From an uncultured Bacilli bacterium (lineage in GTDB: Bacteria; Bacillota_I; Bacilli_A; RF39; UBA660), in contig CAKPLY010000001.1 of the NCBI GenBank assembly GCA_934167825.1, positions 70,850 to 134,849 of the forward strand: a stretch of 64,000 nucleotides of DNA, written 5' to 3'. The translations under genes and the position numbers were made by a program. This document shows positions 8,223 through 59,692 of this stretch, piece by piece. The notes below the pieces were generated by a model. It saw nothing but the letters and a program-made list of their open reading frames with translations, was not told the origin of the DNA and made no database searches. The number at the start of each line of letters is the position of its first letter. The first letter of the stretch is position 1.

Positions 8223-10139
8223 ATGGAAAATGTAGAAGTAAATAATAAGAGTAAAATAGTAAAACTAATGATAATAGTAATTATCTTAATAGTAATAGCA
8301 TTAGTAGGAACTTATGCTTTAACTATATGGAGGAGTCAAGAAAACACAGAACTTACTTTACGTATTGGGGATATCTCAGGAATATATTGTGAAACAGGAG
8401 ATCCAGTTAATATAAGTAATCTAGGGCCTATATTTGATTATGAAATAGATGGTGAAGTAATAACTTTTAGTATAGATAATCAAACTAATGAAGTAGTAAA
8501 AACTTCTGCTACATTTAATATTACTACAATAACAGATAATTTAAAAGAAGAAAGTTTTAAATATAAATTACTTTATAGTACAAATAATACTACTTATGAA
8601 TTATTAAAAGAAGGTAATTTTAAAGATGTTACAAATGGTAGTAAAATAGAATTATTAGAAAACTATGATGTTGCTATATCACAAAAAATACATTTTAAAT
8701 TAATAATCTATATAGATGGTAATATGGAAAATCCTATAACTATGCAAGGAGGTAGTTTGGTGGGATATCTTACTGCATGTAAAATTGTTGAAGTAGATAA
8801 AAGTGGTGCTAATGCACCTGCTTTAACAGATGCATTAATCCCTGTAATGTATGATGAAACAACATCTACTTGGGTAAAAGCAGATTCAAGTAATAATGAT
8901 TTATCCTGGTATAATTATGGTGAAAAGAAATGGGCAAATGCAGTGTTAGTATCATCAACAAATCGTAGTACTTACCAGTCCGCAAGTGCAGGTACAACTA
9001 TAACAGATGCAGACATCTTAGCATTTTATGTATGGATACCGAGATATAAATATAAAGTATGGAATATAAACAAAGTAATGGCTACAGATAGTTATAGTGC
9101 ACAAACTACAGGTATAGATATAGTATTTGAAGCAGGTACATCTTCAACTGGTACAATATCTTGTACATATAGTTATGCTGCACCATCAAGTACTGCCGGA
9201 AGTCCCAATGAAACATGTACAGGTAGTAATGGAGATTATTATACACATCCAGCATTTACGTTTGGTAATCAAGAACTAACAGGATTTTGGATGGGAAAAT
9301 TTGAACTATCAAGTAGTAATCCTGCGACTGGTTCATCTTATGGCGGGGGATACTCTACATCTTTAACACCAAGAATACTACCAAATGTAACATCATGGAG
9401 AAATAATATAGTATCAAACTATTGGAAAGTAATATATGATATGCAAACAAGTAATAATATATATGGACTTCCTACATCAAGAACAAATGCTGATTCACAT
9501 ATGCTTACTAATATGGAGTGGGGAGCAGTAGCATATTTAACTAACTCAAAATATGGAAGATGTACAAATGGAAGTTGTACAGAAGTATCAATTAATGGTT
9601 ACGGAGAAACAAGTAATTATACAACTATGACAGGATGTGGTCCAATATCAAGTGGTAGTACAAGTTATAGTACTACATGTAACGCATATAATACAACTTT
9701 AGGACAAACAGCATCTACTACAGGTAATATATATGGAATATATGATATGTCAGGAGGGGCAACTGAATATGTAATGGGTAATATATCAAAAACAAACGGA
9801 ACAACATATACATATTATGCAGGAAATGCAGGAACAAACTTTACATATAGTACAGATACTGCAAAATATCTAATACCTTATGCATATGGAACAACATATA
9901 ATGACCAAACAGCATATAATAGAGGAAGATTAGGAGATGCAACAAGTGAAGTAGTATCTAGAGCAAGTTATGGATGGTATAATGACTACACGTCTTTTCC
10001 TGTCTTTGGCGATTCTTGGTTTCTTCGTGGCGGCAATTTCGGCGCTAGTAGTGAAGGTGAACCCTTCTCTTTCTTCGGCAATTCTGGCATTAATAACCAC
10101 TCTTGTTCGGGGCGTGCTGCTCTTTCTATTGCATCCTAA
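8223..10139 (+). CDS. N-terminally anchored surface protein with an FGE-sulfatase/C-type-lectin-like C-terminal domain and a compositionally aberrant C-terminal patch
   Basis: N-terminal TM helix. Motifs THPAFTF..ELTGFWMGKFELS, NMEWGAVAYL, GIYDMSGGATEYVMGN and FLRGGNF...GRAAL resemble the FGE/SUMF1 fold. It is a paralog of 51428..54073, sharing ILAFYVWIPRYKYKVWN and TSRTNADSHM.TNMEWGAVAYLTNSKYGRC. Confidence 0.8.
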   Translation: MENVEVNNKSKIVKLMIIVIILIVIALVGTYALTIWRSQENTELTLRIGDISGIYCETGDPVNISNLGPIFDYEIDGEVITFSIDNQTNEVVKTSATFNITTITDNLKEESFKYKLLYSTNNTTYELLKEGNFKDVTNGSKIELLENYDVAISQKIHFKLIIYIDGNMENPITMQGGSLVGYLTACKIVEVDKSGANAPALTDALIPVMYDETTSTWVKADSSNNDLSWYNYGEKKWANAVLVSSTNRSTYQSASAGTTITDADILAFYVWIPRYKYKVWNINKVMATDSYSAQTTGIDIVFEAGTSSTGTISCTYSYAAPSSTAGSPNETCTGSNGDYYTHPAFTFGNQELTGFWMGKFELSSSNPATGSSYGGGYSTSLTPRILPNVTSWRNNIVSNYWKVIYDMQTSNNIYGLPTSRTNADSHMLTNMEWGAVAYLTNSKYGRCTNGSCTEVSINGYGETSNYTTMTGCGPISSGSTSYSTTCNAYNTTLGQTASTTGNIYGIYDMSGGATEYVMGNISKTNGTTYTYYAGNAGTNFTYSTDTAKYLIPYAYGTTYNDQTAYNRGRLGDATSEVVSRASYGWYNDYTSFPVFGDSWFLRGGNFGASSEGEPFSFFGNSGINNHSCSGRAALSIAS

Positions 10140-18140: not shown

Positions 18141-18268
18141 CTAAAAAAGCGGCGATTCCGGCCAACCTAAACAGGAACCTAAAAAAGCGGCGATTCCGGC
18201 CAACCTAAACAAGGAACCTAAAAAAGCGGCGATTCCGGCCAACCTAAACAGGAACCTAAAAAAGTGAC
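18141..18268 (+). ncRNA. ToxI/antiQ-like type III antitoxin RNA: 3 full tandem repeats (38, 39 and 38 nt) plus a 13-nt partial repeat
   Basis: CTAAAAAAGCGGCGATTCCGGCCAACCTAAACA(A)GGAAC at 18141-18178, 18179-18217 and 18218-18255. A partial CTAAAAAAG begins at 18256. The repeats are head-to-tail with no spacers and sit directly upstream of a ToxN/AbiQ homolog. Confidence 0.8.
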
Positions 18269-51427: not shown

Positions 51428-54073
51428 TTATGAGGCAACTGTGAGTACGGCGCGGGTTGAAAATAAACTTGGAGGGAATTGCTGTCCTTGCATATAGCCG
51501 TTACTGAAATGTGTAAAAAAGATTCCAGCACTTGCTCCATTTCTGATTGCTCCCCCACGATTAAACCAAATTGAACTAACATATACATTATCTCCGTTCC
51601 ATCCGGTTTCAGTAGATAACACTACTTCACTTGTTGCATCTCCTAATCTTGCTCTATTATATGCTGTTTGATCATTAGTTGTTGTTCCATATGCATATGT
51701 TGTTATATATTTTGCAGTATCTGTACTATATGTAAAATTAGATCCTGCAGCTGCAGCGTAATAAGTATATGTTGTGCTTTTCTTGCTTGATGCATTTCCC
51801 ATTGTATGCTCATGAGCACCGCCTGACATATCGTATACTCCCGTAATATTACCTGTAGTAGATGCAAGTGCTCCTTTAGCGCCGTTATATTTATTTGCTG
51901 CAGTTGTGCATGTTGTACTAGAAGAACTATCTGCTTCAGCATCCGCGCCTATTCCTGTTGTAAAGAAACTGCAATTATTTATTGTTACTTCTGTACAGCT
52001 TCCATCTGTACATCTTCCATATTTAGAGTTAGTTAGATATGCTACTGCTCCCCACTCCATATTTGTTATCATATGAGAGTCAGCATTTGTTCTTGATGTT
52101 GATAGTCCATATATATTATTACTTGCTTGCATACCATATATTACTTTCCAAAAGTTAGATGCAGGATTTGCTCTCCAGCTTGTTACATTAGGTATTATTC
52201 TTGGTGTTAGTGATGTACTATTTCCTCCACCACTTGTAGTTGATGGTGAAGAACTTGATAATTCAAACTTACCCATCCAAAAACCTTTTAGTTCTTGGTC
52301 GCCAAAAGTAAATGCTGGGTGTGTATAATATCTTGTGCTAGAAGAGTCTGTACAGTTTTCTGCAAGTTCGTTTGCTAAGTTAATTCCTCCTGCAGAAGTA
52401 TCAACATTAAAGTTATATGTACAACTTATTGTACCAGTTGATGATGTATCATCTTCAAAAACTATATCTATTCCTGCTGTTTTAGCATCATATGTAGAGT
52501 TTCCTATTTGTTTACTCATATTCCATACTTTATATTTAAATCTTGGTATCCATACATAGAATGCTAAGATATCAGCATTTGCTATAGTTGTTCCTGCAGT
52601 AGAACTAGAATAAATTGCTCTTGAATTAGTTGTAGCTTTACCTGAAGCAAAATTATAATAAAGTTTTAGATTATCACATACTATACCACTACCACATACT
52701 GAAGTATTTGTTACACTATAATTACTTGCTACTTCTGCAGCAGTTAAAGCATCATTATATACTATAAATCTTTTTATTGTTCCACCAAAATTACCAGAAC
52801 CAGTTGGTCTTTTACCAATAAATGAAGAAGTAGATGATCCCCAAGTCCAATAGTTTACTGAAGAACTTGCAGATAATTTTTTTCCATTTAAATAGACATC
52901 TAAATCACTAAAACTACGATATACGATATCTACAGTATAAGTTGTATTTATAGATAGTCCACTTCCTCCTACTAAGAAAGTTTTAGGTTGTGCTTCTCCA
53001 TTACCTCCTGCTACAATAAATTCTGTAGCATTGTTATATATACCAAGAGCTGCTTTGGTATGGTAATCTCCAAAAATTACTTGATTTTCTTTTGAAGTTG
53101 TAGTAAATGTTACTGAGTATGTTGCTGGGAATGTTGCTCCAATATTTGAAGGTAGTTCTACATAAGTACTTGCATCATTTGTAATATTTAAACTGCCTGA
53201 AGAAATTGTTGTACCTACTAGTTTTCCAATATTGTTGTTTCCTGATAAGTCATTTGCATATGTAGTACCTTCACTTACTAATACTGCATTTGCCCATTTC
53301 TTTTGGTTATAGTCATACCAACCGTAAGTAGATGTAGAACTTGTAATATCTGCTTTTACCCAGTTAGAACCATTATATACTACTGGTATTAATCCATCTG
53401 TTAAAACTGGATAGTTTGCTCCACTATTATCTATTTTTTCAGTATATCTTGACATAGTATCACTTGCTTCAGCACTTATTAAAGTAGATATAAGTTCTCC
53501 AGATATTGGATTAGAGCCATCTACTGCGCTTGAATCTAACCATATGTATACTTTGTAATATGTTTGATAAGGGTTTAGTTCTATATTTGTAACTAAAGAA
53601 AATACATCATTTATTTGTCTATCTTTAAAGTTACCTTCTGCTAGTAGGGTTTCAGTAGTATTAGTAGCAGTATAAGTAGTTATTGCCCACTTAACTGTTT
53701 CACATTTAGCAATATTAGCATTATTAGTACTAGTACCATCTTTAGTTTGTAAATCTAATATTTTCATAGATAACTGACCATATATAGTTTTAGTTACTGT
53801 TGCTTTTTTCCAAAATTCTATAGTGGTACTTATACCTGAAGTATAATTATCTCCAAGAGTTAATGTTACATTATCTGTAGATAATATTGGATTACCATGA
53901 TTATATATTATTAATCCATCTAATCCTTTACTAATAGTTAAATTAACATTAGTGTTATCATCATTACTATTCCATAAATAAAATGCGTATGATATACTAA
54001 GTGCTAAAAGAATAAATCCTATTACTCCTAAAATAGTACCATATATTTTTCTTTTCTCTAAATTTTTAAACAT
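51428..54073 (-). CDS. N-terminally anchored surface protein: paralog of 8223..10139 with an inserted LamG/concanavalin-like domain and its own aberrant C-terminal patch
   Basis: Shares the N-domain, DNSGANYPVLTDGLIPVVY...KKWANAVLVS, ILAFYVWIPRFKYKVWN, YYTHPAFTFGDQELKGFWMGKFELSSS, NMEWGAVAYLTNSKYGRC, GVYDMSGGAHEHTMGN and NRGG...TRAVL. The ~200-aa insert ends in GGTIKRFIVYNDALTAAEVASNY, a LamG_3-like pattern. Confidence 0.8.
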   Translation of the reverse strand: MFKNLEKRKIYGTILGVIGFILLALSISYAFYLWNSNDDNTNVNLTISKGLDGLIIYNHGNPILSTDNVTLTLGDNYTSGISTTIEFWKKATVTKTIYGQLSMKILDLQTKDGTSTNNANIAKCETVKWAITTYTATNTTETLLAEGNFKDRQINDVFSLVTNIELNPYQTYYKVYIWLDSSAVDGSNPISGELISTLISAEASDTMSRYTEKIDNSGANYPVLTDGLIPVVYNGSNWVKADITSSTSTYGWYDYNQKKWANAVLVSEGTTYANDLSGNNNIGKLVGTTISSGSLNITNDASTYVELPSNIGATFPATYSVTFTTTSKENQVIFGDYHTKAALGIYNNATEFIVAGGNGEAQPKTFLVGGSGLSINTTYTVDIVYRSFSDLDVYLNGKKLSASSSVNYWTWGSSTSSFIGKRPTGSGNFGGTIKRFIVYNDALTAAEVASNYSVTNTSVCGSGIVCDNLKLYYNFASGKATTNSRAIYSSSTAGTTIANADILAFYVWIPRFKYKVWNMSKQIGNSTYDAKTAGIDIVFEDDTSSTGTISCTYNFNVDTSAGGINLANELAENCTDSSSTRYYTHPAFTFGDQELKGFWMGKFELSSSSPSTTSGGGNSTSLTPRIIPNVTSWRANPASNFWKVIYGMQASNNIYGLSTSRTNADSHMITNMEWGAVAYLTNSKYGRCTDGSCTEVTINNCSFFTTGIGADAEADSSSSTTCTTAANKYNGAKGALASTTGNITGVYDMSGGAHEHTMGNASSKKSTTYTYYAAAAGSNFTYSTDTAKYITTYAYGTTTNDQTAYNRARLGDATSEVVLSTETGWNGDNVYVSSIWFNRGGAIRNGASAGIFFTHFSNGYMQGQQFPPSLFSTRAVLTVAS

Positions 54074-55932: not shown

Positions 55933-55961
55933 ATCCCACGAAGGATATTCCTTCATGGGAT
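55933..55961 (-). promoter_or_regulatory. conserved 12-bp stem hairpin just 3' of the 359-aa gene, copy B
   Basis: On the minus strand ATCCCATGAAGG-AATAT-CCTTCGTGGGAT. One pair is G.U on the sense-strand RNA but C.A on the opposite strand. Followed by TTTATAAAA. Confidence 0.6.
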
Positions 55962-55967
55962 ACTCTG

Positions 55968-57038
55968 TTACATAGATACAGTATATGGATCATCAAATGT
56001 ACCTTCTCCTCCAGTTACTAGGACATTAGATTTTAGATAGAAGGTTGGACGGATGGTGTGGCAAAAACGCACGGTGTTGCTACTGACATACCCATCGGTA
56101 TAGACGTTGAAGGCACTATTGGTACTAGATCGTGGTGTTATTGTCCATTCATATCCTTTATATAACCAGTTTTTATTTACGTAATATTGTGATGATGCTG
56201 TAGTTGTTGCGGTATCTGCAAAGTAACTACTAGCATATAGATAATCTGATACGTACATTAATCCAACATTTGCAGTTGTAGTAGAATCATACGCTCCACT
56301 ATTAGCACTCATACAGTTTGTGGTATCTGTACTTAATCCTCTTTCACACAAGTAAAAATTTTGTTTGCTATATCCATTTCCACTGTATCCTTTTAGATAC
56401 CACGTTACTTCTTCGATATAGTTTCTATATGTATCATTTATTCCGTATCCTACAATATCACTGCAAGAAAATGTTTTGTAATCGTTATTGTTAAAGTAAT
56501 ATGTCCAGTTACTACATGCACCATAAGTGGAAGAAGTATTAGTTTTATTATAGAAGTATTCATTTAATATAACATTTGCACTTGCTTTTACTCCAGTTGT
56601 ATTTCCTGTCCAGTCGTTTTTATAACTAGAGTATGTACCTGAAGAGTTTGTAGAGTTATACACTCCCCAAGAACCAGAGTATAATACTCTACTTCTAATT
56701 AGTTTAACTAGATATTCTCCAGTTTTACCATGACTATTAGAATCAAATACTCCAATTATTCTATATAATTCATTATTAAATAGAACATAGTTACTTGGAT
56801 CTGCTCCACGATATCTATAATCGTGGTATTTAGTAGTACTATCAGTGTCAGTATAACTATTAGTTTTACATACTCCTGTTCCTCCAGCATTACATGCTGA
56901 AGATGTTTCTAAACTAATTACTTTATCTGCTAGAGTTGTACTTACTGCATATGTTTGGTTAATAATTTTAGGTATAATGATCGCAAGTATTCCTAATATT
57001 ACAATAGATATAGATATAATAGTAATTTTCTTATTCAT
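55968..57038 (-). CDS. anchored surface protein, short paralog of 58079..59692, with a DUF1566-like hypervariable C-terminal patch
   Basis: N-terminal TM helix. About 300 aa are near-identical to the C-terminal part of the 537-aa paralog, except for 56052-56132. ATG 57038 is preferred over 57047. Confidence 0.75.
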   Translation of the reverse strand: MNKKITIISISIVILGILAIIIPKIINQTYAVSTTLADKVISLETSSACNAGGTGVCKTNSYTDTDSTTKYHDYRYRGADPSNYVLFNNELYRIIGVFDSNSHGKTGEYLVKLIRSRVLYSGSWGVYNSTNSSGTYSSYKNDWTGNTTGVKASANVILNEYFYNKTNTSSTYGACSNWTYYFNNNDYKTFSCSDIVGYGINDTYRNYIEEVTWYLKGYSGNGYSKQNFYLCERGLSTDTTNCMSANSGAYDSTTTANVGLMYVSDYLYASSYFADTATTTASSQYYVNKNWLYKGYEWTITPRSSTNSAFNVYTDGYVSSNTVRFCHTIRPTFYLKSNVLVTGGEGTFDDPYTVSM

Positions 57039-57269
57039 TTTCAACATTCCTTCTTTCTTTAATTAATATATTATCAAGAATATTATTTAACTTATCTTTT
57101 AAATAATATTCTTCATACTTATTATCTTCATATTCTTTTTTTATTACCTCTAAATTATCTAAAATAATATAATTAATATGTAATTTTTTTAGTGTATTTA
57201 TTTTCTTTTTATTCTTAACATTTTACTTACTTCGTCATTATATATTTTTAATATCTTCCCATTTATAGA

Positions 57270-57620
57270 TTATTCACTGGATTTCATCCAGTCCTCAATC
57301 ATTTTTATTATTTCCGCGAGGCGTTTTGAATAATTATGTAATTTTTTTTCTGTTATATATTTTTTAGTGTAAGCACGTTCTAATAGAAAATCTATTATAC
57401 TTAATCTTGCAATTATTTGTGTTTGTACTGCTTTTTTATCTTTTTCATTAGCTGTTAAGGTTGCGGTGTACACAAGTAGCAATACATTTATTTCACATTC
57501 TTTAAAATATTCACGATTGAAAAGGTCCTTTTCCGGTACATTTTCAAATAATTTTTCACTATCTAATATAAATTTCTTTATACAAGATATTATTTTAAAC
57601 TTATCTTCATTGTAATTCAT
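57270..57620 (-). CDS. four-helix-bundle protein (23S rRNA IVS protein / DGR Avd-like family)
   Basis: 116 aa. NVPEKDLFNREYFKECEINVLLLVYTA....KK...Q.IIARLSIIDFLLERAYTKKYITEKKLHNYSKRLAEIIKMIEDWMKS follows the Avd/TIGR02436-type pattern I remember (..P..EK..L...i......ll.....A ... l..L ... kyIs...y..l...l.EI.KMi.gW). Confidence 0.6.
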   Translation of the reverse strand: MNYNEDKFKIISCIKKFILDSEKLFENVPEKDLFNREYFKECEINVLLLVYTATLTANEKDKKAVQTQIIARLSIIDFLLERAYTKKYITEKKLHNYSKRLAEIIKMIEDWMKSSE

Positions 57621-58010
57621 CTTCTATTACCTCAATTAATTTTTCTAAGATAGAAATATCTTCTGCTTTATTTATTTAATTTTCTATTCTATCTACTCTT
57701 TGTTTTATATCTTTATATTCAAGTGCTTGTTTTAACACTTTGTTATAGTTATTAAAATTACCATATTTTTTATGATCATAATGATCATTTTTATCTACTA
57801 TTTGATAATTAATTTTTTATCTTCAAGTGTATTTATTACTTTGCTTAGTGCAGTTTTACGGAAATCCTACTTTGTTATCTATTAGTGTTTTATAACCAAA
57901 TAGGTAATTTAATATTATTGCACTATCGTTATATGTATTATAAAATTTGCCAATTTTATATAATGTTATTGTTGCATCTATTTCTTTGTTTCTTGTTTTA
58001 GTTTTGACAT
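57607..58010 (-). pseudogene. frameshifted small gene with a MutS-domain-I-like N-terminus
   Basis: Pieces in three frames read MSKLKQETKK / IDATITLYKIGKFYNTYNDSAIILNYLFGYKTLIDNKVGFP / KTALSKVINTLEDKKLIIK / QIVDKNDHYDHKKYGNFNNYNKVLKQALEYKDIKQRVDRIEN / INKAEDISILEKLIEVIEDELQ. LYKIGKFY..Y.DSA...VGFP..AL...I..L aligns by eye with MutS LFYRMGDFYELFYDDA...AGIP.HA...YL.KL. Only one 73-aa piece (57856..58077) appears in the ORF track. Confidence 0.4.
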
Positions 58011-58032
58011 TGTTGTGGCGTTCCTTTCGATT

Positions 58033-58062
58033 GTCCCACGGAGGCTCGTTCCTCCATGGGAC
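58033..58062 (-). promoter_or_regulatory. conserved 12-bp stem hairpin just 3' of the 537-aa gene, copy A
   Basis: On the minus strand GTCCCATGGAGG-AACGAG-CCTCCGTGGGAC. It differs from copy B by a compensatory G-C to A-T pair change and has the same G.U position. No T-run follows. Confidence 0.6.
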
Positions 58063-58078
58063 TTGTTTAATAAACATT

Positions 58079-59692
58079 TTATACTGCTAGTATGTATGGG
58101 TCACTTATAGTTCCGCTTCCTTTCTCAATACTGATTATAGATTTTAGATAGAAGGTTGGACGGACAACGTAGCCATAGTACGCGAAATTAGGGTAGACAT
58201 TCCCAGTGTATTGAATGCAGATGACGTGATTGGCGCCAGTAGAGTGTGGTGTTATTGTCCATTCATATCCTTTATATAACCAGTTTTTATTTCCGTAATA
58301 TAGTGATGATGCTGTAGTTGTTGCGGTATCTGCAAAATAACTACTAGCATATAGATAATCTGATACATACATTAATCCAATATTTGCAGTTGTAGTAGAA
58401 TCATATGTTCCATTATTGGCACTCATACAGCTTGTGGTGTCTGTACTTAATCCTCTTTCACACAAGTAAAAATTTTGTTTACTATACTCATTACTTCTAT
58501 ATCCTTTTAGATACCATGCTACTTCTTCAATATAATTTCTATAAGTATCATTTATTCCATATCCTACTATATCACTGCAAGAAAATGTTTTGTAATCGTT
58601 ATTATTAAAGTAATATGTCCAGTTACTACATGCCCCATAAGTGGAAGAAGTGTTAATTTTATTATAGAAGTATTCATTTAATATAACGTTTGCACTCGCT
58701 TTTACTCCTGTAGTATTTCCTGTCCAATCGTTTGAATATCCAGAGTATGTACCTGAAGAGTTTGTGGTATTATACGCTCCCCAAGCACCTGCATACAATG
58801 GATTTGCCATGATCAGTTTGATTAAGTATTCTCCTTCTCTACCATGAGAGTTAGAATCAAATACTCCTATTATTCTATATAGATCATTATTAAATGATAC
58901 GTAATTATTTGGTTCCGCTCCACGATATCTATAGTCGTGATATTTAGTTTCTCCGTTTTCAGTGTAGGAGTTTGTTGCACATACTCCTGTACCTCCAGCA
59001 GCACACGCTGAAGTGGAAGCAAGATTCATTATGGTTTTAGATGCTGTAAGAGGTCTTACAAGGGCTTTTTTACTTTTAGTAGATAATTCTATTTTGATAT
59101 TACCACTTATTGTTTTACCCATTAAACTAGAGATATCTTGGTCTATAGTACAAGTAGTTACATCTCCAGTACATTCTTCACTTATCCAAATAAATAATGT
59201 ATAAGAGTCTGCAGTACTAGAGTTAGATGGTAAATCTTGTTGTATTGGAGTAAGTACCATTCTCTTATTGATTTGAGCATCAAAATCATAAGAGAAGTTA
59301 CCACTTGACAATTCAGTATTATTTTTATATAATCTCCATTTTAATAATTTATGATGTGCTAAAGTATCCATAGTTAAATCAGTTAAACTAACATCATAAA
59401 TTATAGGTATATCGGTAGGATTAGAACTAGCACCTTTAACAGTAAAGTTTGCTTTTAATACTTTACTATTTGTAGCACTAGAAGTAATAGTAGTATCTAC
59501 TACGGGTTCTAGTTTACTTGATGGAAGTGTTACACTTCCAGTATAAACTACATTATAATTACCACTACCAATATTAATACCTATATCAGTTCCTGTTGCT
59601 AAAGTATATCCTACATATAAAAGTATTATAAAAGCAAGAATTAGAGCAAATACTTTAATATTATTTTTAATAAATTTATTTATATTTTCCAT
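58079..59692 (-). CDS. anchored surface protein with an N-domain shared with the FGE-like family and a DUF1566-like hypervariable C-terminal patch
   Basis: N-terminal TM helix. The N-domain (LKWRLYKNNTELSSGNF...YTLFIWISE) resembles those of 8223 and 51428. The C-terminal ~300 aa are paralogous to 55968..57038. Divergent patch at 58163-58246. Confidence 0.75.
   Translation of the reverse strand: MENINKFIKNNIKVFALILAFIILLYVGYTLATGTDIGINIGSGNYNVVYTGSVTLPSSKLEPVVDTTITSSATNSKVLKANFTVKGASSNPTDIPIIYDVSLTDLTMDTLAHHKLLKWRLYKNNTELSSGNFSYDFDAQINKRMVLTPIQQDLPSNSSTADSYTLFIWISEECTGDVTTCTIDQDISSLMGKTISGNIKIELSTKSKKALVRPLTASKTIMNLASTSACAAGGTGVCATNSYTENGETKYHDYRYRGAEPNNYVSFNNDLYRIIGVFDSNSHGREGEYLIKLIMANPLYAGAWGAYNTTNSSGTYSGYSNDWTGNTTGVKASANVILNEYFYNKINTSSTYGACSNWTYYFNNNDYKTFSCSDIVGYGINDTYRNYIEEVAWYLKGYRSNEYSKQNFYLCERGLSTDTTSCMSANNGTYDSTTTANIGLMYVSDYLYASSYFADTATTTASSLYYGNKNWLYKGYEWTITPHSTGANHVICIQYTGNVYPNFAYYGYVVRPTFYLKSIISIEKGSGTISDPYILAV

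Follow-up and report, generated by a model that had tools for sequence, protein, structure and literature searches.

The paradigm for diversity-generating retroelements (DGRs) is the element of Bordetella phage BPP-1 (Mtd/Avd/TR/Brt), in which TR denotes the template repeat and Brt the reverse transcriptase (RT). A further described accessory gene of DGRs is the MutS-like gene (MSL), and the MSL-containing DGRs constitute "Architecture D" of Wu et al. (2018; PMC5758913). The Legionella DGR carries an MSL gene and exemplifies the DUF1566/CLec2 class of targets (PMC5758913). We discuss here a stretch of 64,000 nucleotides from an uncultured Bacilli bacterium (contig CAKPLY010000001.1 of assembly GCA_934167825.1, positions 70,850 to 134,849 of the forward strand), called the 64-kb window below. 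Two tandem paralogous genes of the window, target genes A and B, each contain one GC-rich patch, which an initial annotation made from the sequence had likened to the variable region (VR) of a DGR. The assignment of the locus to the DGR family is secure, and its member in the window is decayed. The locus probably represents the remains of a chromosomal MSL-containing DGR, from which the RT and TR have been deleted, and in which the VRs are past outputs that are no longer rewritten from the locus.

The locus and its relatives resemble the MSL-containing DGRs in their chromosomal location, in the combination of avd with a small MutS-domain-I-like protein, in having more than one target, in the position of the VR near the C-terminus of a lectin-like, putative surface protein, and in a TR built of AAC and AAT codons. 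They differ in gene order: target-MSL-avd-RT-TR-ORF~100-target is the arrangement in the relatives, where the TR is located downstream of the RT and targets flank the cassette on both sides. They also differ in the extra open reading frame (ORF) of about 100 codons, ORF~100, between the TR and target B, in targets that belong to no Pfam family, DUF1566 included, and in the host, an uncultured low-GC gut Bacilli lineage; in the window, moreover, a deletion has taken the RT and TR, and MSL is a pseudogene. Shared with the BPP-1 DGR are an Avd homolog, adenine-specific changes from TR to VR (in the relatives), an element richer in GC at the 3' VR end and, downstream of it, a hairpin; among solved structures, the RT of the relatives is closest to 8ub7_A (taken to be Brt), with the IGxxTxQ and YMDD motifs. 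Unlike the BPP-1 DGR, the locus is chromosomal, has two targets and MSL, and its targets are predicted to have the fold of a double-size CTLD (a domain resembling that of C-type lectins), unlike Mtd.

The window is AT-rich, with a GC content of about 26%. The two target genes and their patches are as follows:

58079 to 59692, minus strand: target gene A, an ORF of 537 aa comprising a hydrophobic anchor and an additional domain, both N-terminal, and a C-type-lectin-like ectodomain in which the VR lies close to the C-terminus.
55968 to 57047, minus strand: target gene B, an ORF of 359 aa comprising a hydrophobic N-terminal anchor and a C-type-lectin-like ectodomain in which the VR lies close to the C-terminus.
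58163 to 58246, minus strand: VR-A, a hypervariable patch of 84 nt, recognized by an excess of codons ending in C (NNC), a GC content of 48% and alignment to the TR (TR-homologous stretch, 58162-58238).
56052 to 56132, minus strand: VR-B, a hypervariable patch of 81 nt, recognized by an NNC-codon excess, a GC content of 48% and alignment to the TR after one 3-nt deletion.

Protein A is identical to the database protein P0191, and protein B is identical to P0121 from M4 onward; M4, at position 57038, is also where the gene B orthologs begin. The last ~310 residues of A and B match nearly residue for residue, the exception being the segment between WTITP and RPTFYLK. The description of the genes in the initial annotation, as tandem paralogs unrelated only in a patch of 84 or 81 nt, thus holds in its coordinates, its sequences and the near-identity of the flanking residues. 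The flanks GAATGGACAATAACACCA and CGTCCAACCTTCTATCT (17-18-mers) occur exactly twice each in the window, at both loci, where about 0.05 occurrences would be expected by chance. The patches differ in length, 27 versus 28 codons, as had been noted; the difference is real and corresponds, in an alignment to the TR of sister strains, to the loss of 3 nt from patch B, AGCGCC being reduced to ACC at its 5' end.

In patch A, 15 of 28 codons are NNC at a GC content of 48%, versus 53 of the remaining 509 codons of the gene (10%, with 31% GC; Fisher p = 8e-8). Our recount agrees with the codon count given earlier, and the GC content of 58151-58246 is 0.49, as claimed. Patch B has 14 NNC codons among 27, also with 48% GC, versus 11% NNC in the remainder of gene B (Fisher p = 1.2e-6). 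Ranked by GC content among the 90-nt stretches of the window, the patches are third and fourth. The most GC-rich 90-nt stretch (53%) belongs to three tandem copies of a 38-39-nt unit, CTAAAAAAGCGGCGATTCCGGCCAACCTAAACAGGAAC, at 18141-18264. That the patches reflect a chance fluctuation of composition or a chimera of assembly is hardly credible, and this idea has no support beyond its a priori possibility: the two p-values speak against chance, the same architecture is found in dozens of independent assemblies, and the exact proteins of the window are present in public collections.

Variation among homologs is concentrated in the patches. The homologs found by a protein search number 1,657; each is unnamed or labeled "hypothetical", and gut metagenomes are the source of most. 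All related genomes found subsequently are metagenome-assembled genomes (MAGs) of uncultured Bacilli. In an alignment of 122 sequences, the entropy exceeds 3 bits only at 14 alternating positions within residues 306-330 of B. The scaffold within the VR is conserved, at about 0-1 bit (A312, F313, V315, G319, V321, G329, G331 and V332, or A-F-x-V-x-x-x-G-x-V ... G-x-G-V). Within clusters of at least 90% identity, 28 of 31 VR columns vary in B and all 32 of 32 in A, versus 61 of 329 and 93 of 511 columns outside the VR. Tyr, Asn and Ser dominate the hypervariable positions, at which K, E, Q, M and W together account for 4.9% of residues versus 12.4% elsewhere. These five amino acids are not encodable by NNC or NNT codons. 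The exact VR alleles of the window are recorded on 5-6 contigs, and the variant P0201 differs outside the VR alone, a recurrence that fits stable VRs.

Comparison with sister strains, which had been suggested as a check, provides the most direct view of the system. In RNase J, the gene next to the locus, the sister-strain contigs and the window share 98.7-99.3% identity, which places them in the same species. The VR of gene B is only 57-67% identical to that of the window, versus ~99% for RNase J, and the remainder of the gene is 91-92% identical at the DNA level. The whole target gene, beyond the VR, seems to be evolving or recombining faster than the genome average. An alignment of the gap between A and B in five strains shows that L005 and L006 have, between the paralogs, MSL, avd, RT, TR and ORF~100, in this order. 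The TR of L005 is AGCGCCAATAACGCCTTCAACGTGAACAACAATGGGAACGTCAACAACAACAACACTAACAACGGCAACAGCGTCC. Both cassettes are damaged: the RT of L005 has frameshifts and reads YMDE instead of YMDD, and L006 has an RT frameshift, has lost the MSL start codon and has a TR (~9560-9640) 18 nt shorter than that of L005. In L001, two deletions have taken both ends of the RT together with the TR, and in L007, deletions have taken MSL, half of avd and the RT, leaving a TR remnant. The lesion of the window is a single deletion of 1382 bp between two AAGAAAATAAA repeats, with the RT gone past about codon 25.

A complete version was found when metagenomes were scanned with the TR core. Thirteen of the 14 matches were to unrelated GC-rich DNA; the only relevant one, L042, is from the same species (1628 of 1647 nt identical in RNase J) and carries at the homologous place an intact RT of 365 aa (YMDD, IGAMTNQ), a TR and gene B. 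Thus, when six strains of the species are compared, five have different and independent lesions, L042 alone has an intact RT with its cognate TR, and the pair of VRs differs in each. When the GTDB species representatives were scanned, related species also proved to have complete cassettes (L008, L010, L011, L012 and L014), all of them human gut MAGs named "uncultured Bacilli" or "uncultured Clostridiales". Intact RTs of 365-370 aa are present in L042 and in these five, and a TR is present in L005, L006, L008, L011, L012, L014 and L042. The RTs of the relatives exceed the Pfam RVT_1 threshold. Their closest solved relative is the 328-aa RT 8ub7_A (E about 1e-14), which scores better than a group II intron RT. 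The match spans the IGSLTSQ/IGSMTNQ motif, and the YMDD of 8ub7_A is at 213-216, as reported for Bordetella Brt, which 8ub7_A is taken to be. An Rfam search of the L005 and L008 loci, the region downstream of the TR included, matched no known RNA family.

ORF~100 is intact in L005, L006, L008, L011, L012, L014 and L042. It has ~96-116 aa, lies between the TR and gene B and overlaps the start codon of B (L042, 1315..1665; L008, 2120..2410; L002, 9718..10008). It is retained in the L002 species, which has lost the rest of the cassette. Searches of the family libraries gave no family match for it. The idea of a second MSL-like protein was dropped, as there was neither significant similarity nor a family match; ORF~100 may be a further accessory gene or part of the expression signals of B. 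In L008, the TR (~1907-1967) is 5 codons shorter than its own VR despite the intact RT, and the length of the TR is polymorphic.

The TR and VR of the relatives differ at adenines alone. Between the TR of L042 and its own VR, 14 of 30 adenines and none of 47 other bases are changed (p = 1.7e-7); the VR of L005 differs from the same TR at 17 of 30 adenines and at none of 47 other bases, and in L011 the changes between TR and VR amount to 12 of 27 and 0 of 43, respectively. This adenine-only pattern is the defining signature of mutagenic retrohoming. With the TR and RT that sister strains hold between the paralogs, and with hypervariability among strains confined to the patch, it supports the reading of the patches as DGR variable regions, which the initial annotation had proposed.

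Several observations weigh against so simple an account of the window itself. The bias to adenines is weak in both of its VRs, and its own TR no longer exists. Aligned without gaps to the species TR, taken from L042, VR-A is changed at 16 of 30 adenines and mismatched at 14 of 47 other bases, six of these being C>T (p = 0.034). For VR-B, aligned with one 3-nt deletion, the figures are 14 of 29 adenines and 15 of 41 other bases, seven of them C>T (p = 0.23). Such a level of mismatch at bases other than adenine is far above the drift expected from a housekeeping divergence of ~1%. The patches also disagree with each other at several third-codon positions. The view that they are not two outputs of a single template therefore stands in part: the third-codon conflicts and the 14-15 non-adenine mismatches in each favor it, and against it the complete cassettes hold one TR, to which both patches align. 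Either the patches are old, or a diverged TR allele was the template, or a segment of the gene was exchanged between lineages. Our preferred reading, which does not fully explain the mismatches, is that the now-deleted cassette wrote both VRs, possibly at different times, from an AAT-richer TR allele, and that they then drifted under AT pressure. AAT codons do occur in the TR alleles of L006, L007 and L008. The ~30% of non-adenine mismatch, half of it C>T, could have accumulated while frozen VRs evolved independently for a long time under AT mutation pressure, or the RT could have a wider range of misincorporation.

The same mismatches bear on the possibility that the patches vary without reverse transcription, through diversifying selection on point mutations, gene conversion involving the two paralogs or recombination with GC-rich DNA of foreign origin. 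The divergence of the bodies of A and B between strains, unusual beside that of RNase J, would suit recombination or selection acting on the whole locus, and VR lengths of 27-31 codons are not producible by adenine mutagenesis alone. The length variation is paralleled, however, by that of the TRs of L006 and L008, and its probable cause is slippage at AAC runs within the TR. Variation of this kind also leaves unexplained the runs of NNC and NNT codons with their scarcity of K, E, Q, M and W, the adenine-only pattern of L042, L005 and L011, and the avd, MSL and RT remnants exactly between the two genes, and the difference between patches A and B means that conversion is not homogenizing them. 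We regard it as very unlikely. Judging from the sequences, some "intact" cassettes appear no longer to match their VRs.

The gap between A and B in the window retains the following remnants:

57607 to 58022, minus strand: MSL pseudogene, 77% identical to the intact MSL of L005 by tblastn, with no ATG and four in-frame stops.
57270 to 57620, minus strand: avd, an intact ORF of 116 aa (Pfam bAvd, E 1.9e-6; NCBIfam DivGenRetAVD, E 1e-7), also identified by orthology and synteny.
57208 to 57277, minus strand: 5' remnant of the RT, about 25 codons with two 1-nt deletions, which aligns to the RT starts of L005, L006 and the intact 365-aa RT of L042.
57197 to 57207, minus strand: deletion junction AAGAAAATAAA, 11 nt, from the five-strain alignment.
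57031 to 57196, minus strand: 3' remnant of ORF~100 (a ~97-116-aa ORF in relatives), from the five-strain alignment.

The 1382 bp of L005 that are absent from the window take in the TR entirely, the RT for the most part, the RNA region past the TR and the 5' half of ORF~100, and in L005 the 11-nt motif AAGAAAATAAA is at either end of the deleted segment (889-899 and 2271-2281). The TR is absent from the window because it falls inside this deletion. No RT was found in the window, where a six-frame scan for YxDD matched only mnmA-like and greA-like genes, and no TR-like sequence was found there by ungapped scans (with up to 45% mismatches) or by an adenine-tolerant scan. The search for a TR and an RT proposed in the initial annotation thus fails within the 64 kb and succeeds in the sister strains. 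Applied to the window alone, such a test would reject a correct DGR idea, because the RT and TR are deleted here. Both family scores of avd are under the curated cut-offs; complete cassettes carry its ortholog in a syntenic position.

The MSL copy is broken, and no intact small MutS-domain-I protein is encoded beside avd in the window. The Pfam MutS_I match is weak in all copies (E 0.016 for the window, 3e-4 for the intact copy of L005 and 5e-3 for that of L008). The intact MSL of L005 is a 161-aa open frame reaching the contig edge, or ~138 aa from its ATG, and that of L008 has 136 aa. A 13-nt tandem repeat, GCAACACAACAAT, lies at ~58010-58022, at the 5' end of MSL and just past the gene A hairpin described below. 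There is one copy in the window, L001 and L007, 4.1 copies in L006 (7672-7724) and at least 6 in L005 (1-85, to the contig edge). The in-frame ATG of MSL comes from the junction of the last two units; the strains with a single copy are without a start codon, and in L006 the junction is ACG. At this position, repeats of 15 nt or 39 nt are present in related species. The repeat could serve as a slippage-prone on/off switch for MSL. The window (57607-58022) and L001 (~8790-9135) have in common an MSL nonsense mutation and a 1-nt insertion (GGATTTCC[G/A]TAAAACT…). Their VRs are nevertheless unrelated and their RT and TR deletions different, which is a further difficulty for the proposed reading of the locus. 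Either homing went on without MSL, which would then be dispensable, or recombination has shuffled the locus.

A history of the locus can be proposed from these comparisons. The ancestral layout would have been that of the relatives, target A - MSL - avd - RT - TR - ORF~100 - target B. In an intact cassette, following the Bordetella phage paradigm, the TR would be transcribed, and the RT with Avd would make cDNA while misreading adenines. In each of the two flanking genes, the cDNA would then take the place of the ~77-nt VR close to the 3' end. The VRs are runs of NNC and NNT codons because the TR is built of AAC and AAT codons, and such runs, which cannot produce stop codons, would form GC-rich islands in a 26%-GC genome. 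Rewriting of the VR would alter the face with which a surface-anchored, C-type-lectin-like protein binds its ligand. In the window strain, the deletion between the AAGAAAATAAA repeats has taken the RT and TR, MSL has lost its start and gained stops, and avd alone is intact. Since the RT and TR are gone, the patches are no longer rewritable from the locus and are open to ordinary mutation only. We infer that the patches of the window were written as those of its sister strains were and are now frozen, and the location and binding role of the protein rest on similar reasoning. The VRs are most likely frozen relics, unless a DGR outside the window acts on them.

A second DGR could indeed be located elsewhere in the genome, beyond the 64 kb, and this possibility counts against the VRs being relics. 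The patches would then be active remote targets, rewritten in trans and served by the local avd, flank and hairpin. DGRs are able to act on targets that are remote or not adjacent to them, with avd, TR and RT functioning in trans (PMC5758913). The avd ORF, the 3' flank and the hairpins are all intact in the window, and the non-adenine mismatches to the species TR could mean a different template. The species represented by L002-L004 has both paralogs with NNC-rich VRs; no cassette lies between them, and no TR was found. We consider a remote DGR unlikely nonetheless. In every relative in which a TR or RT was found, it is located between the two paralogs, and the 64 kb hold no TR-like sequence. 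The third-codon conflicts imply that one template cannot have written both patches as they stand. The VR alleles of the window recur on 5-6 contigs, and in L002-L004 three samples agree in both VRs; for B, this agreement is a consequence of looking up the exact protein. We thus retain the reading of the VRs as outputs of a local cassette now deleted. More tentatively, and with the balance leaning against it, strains may lose the diversifier repeatedly, and perhaps adaptively rather than by neutral decay: a "diversify, then lock in" course, in which the RT or TR is destroyed after a useful lectin specificity has been found, and which the differing lesions and VR pairs of the six strains would fit.

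The ends of the VRs and the segments downstream have features in common at the two genes:

58139 to 58162, minus strand: 3' flank of VR-A, CGTCCAACCTTCTATCTAAAATCT, 24 nt, invariant as DNA; TR/VR homology stops at its first base.
56028 to 56051, minus strand: 3' flank of VR-B, identical to the flank at A.
58033 to 58062, minus strand: hairpin past the stop codon of A, 12-bp stem and 6-nt loop; DNA fold -13.1 kcal/mol, z = -5.9.
55933 to 55961, minus strand: hairpin past the stop codon of B, 13-bp stem and 3-nt loop, followed by TTTTAT; DNA fold -11.3 kcal/mol, z = -6.1.

The 24-nt flank is near-invariant as DNA in six aligned VRs, including those of a species with only ~72% protein identity, the single difference being C/T in the A copy of L001. 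The TR departs from the VR sequence directly past GCGTCC. The flank is a candidate target-recognition element, similar to the initiation of mutagenic homing (IMH) element. The A hairpin is kept in sister strains, and the B copy shows a compensatory change from G-C to A-T. The B hairpin is identical in L001 and near-identical in L002 and L005. The cruciforms described for phage DGRs are 4-34 bp from the VR and have a GRNA loop (PMC3240598). The hairpins here, unlike those of BPP-1 and other phage DGRs, are ~90-100 nt downstream of the VR ends, with loops of 3 or 6 nt that are not GRNA, and in this respect they do not favor a DGR. At most they are candidate DGR cruciforms, as distance and loops do not fit the canonical form, and the B hairpin plus its T-run may simply be an intrinsic terminator.

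The target proteins are without an annotated family. Neither paralog matches a Pfam family at E <= 0.1, DUF1566 included, and NCBIfam gave no match either; the resemblance to DUF1566 suggested initially is therefore not upheld at the sequence level. The other part of that suggestion, a target of C-type-lectin type, is supported by modeling. Searches of the PDB by sequence gave nothing useful from Avd or from a profile of 41 target homologs. An AlphaFold2 model of target B from the 41-sequence alignment is of moderate confidence (pLDDT 68.9, pTM 0.75). In a Foldseek search of the PDB it has one significant match, to the IgA peptidase of Thomasclavelia ramosa (9qa6; E 1.8e-6 over 311 columns), the N-terminal domain of which is described by the authors of that work as an enlarged, double-size C-type-lectin-like domain (PMC12237041). 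Other CTLDs (8q4e, SP-A, LLT1, CD23 and MBP-A) are listed at non-significant E-values alone, and the solved DGR targets Mtd and TvpA are not among the Foldseek matches of the model. The whole ectodomain thus models as an enlarged C-type-lectin-like fold. The predicted likeness to the IgA peptidase domain extends to its origin in gut Bacillota. The two differ in that they share 15% sequence identity, that the peptidase domain is joined to a metallopeptidase, and that its diversification by a DGR is unreported in PMC12237041. The N-terminal hydrophobic helix suggests a membrane-anchored or secreted protein, which, by analogy with other DGR targets, would bind a ligand.

Another gene of the window, at 51428..54073 on the minus strand, encodes an 881-aa protein with an N-terminal anchor, a Laminin_G_3 domain and an FGE/lectin-like C-terminus (…RGGAIRNG…STRAVL). 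It was considered as a third DGR target and ruled out, since its last ~240 residues are identical in L001 and thus not diversified. In L005 and L006 its position is taken by other genes (for a 672-aa protein and AbiEi/AbiEii).

A protein family that lacked annotation receives an identity, as a lectin-like, putatively surface-located protein that DGRs diversify in uncultured gut Bacilli. The points of interest are the unannotated target family itself, the presence of a target on each side of the cassette together with a conserved ORF, and the independent losses of the cassette within one species. DGR variable regions are recognizable from sequence alone once the RT and TR are gone; DGR finders anchored on the RT would miss such loci, and a search restricted to a single strain can wrongly refute a correct DGR call. 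The sister strains form a natural series, from an intact cassette to its full deletion, which bears on the rate at which DGRs are lost, on the need for MSL in homing and on the fate of the VRs once diversification has ceased.

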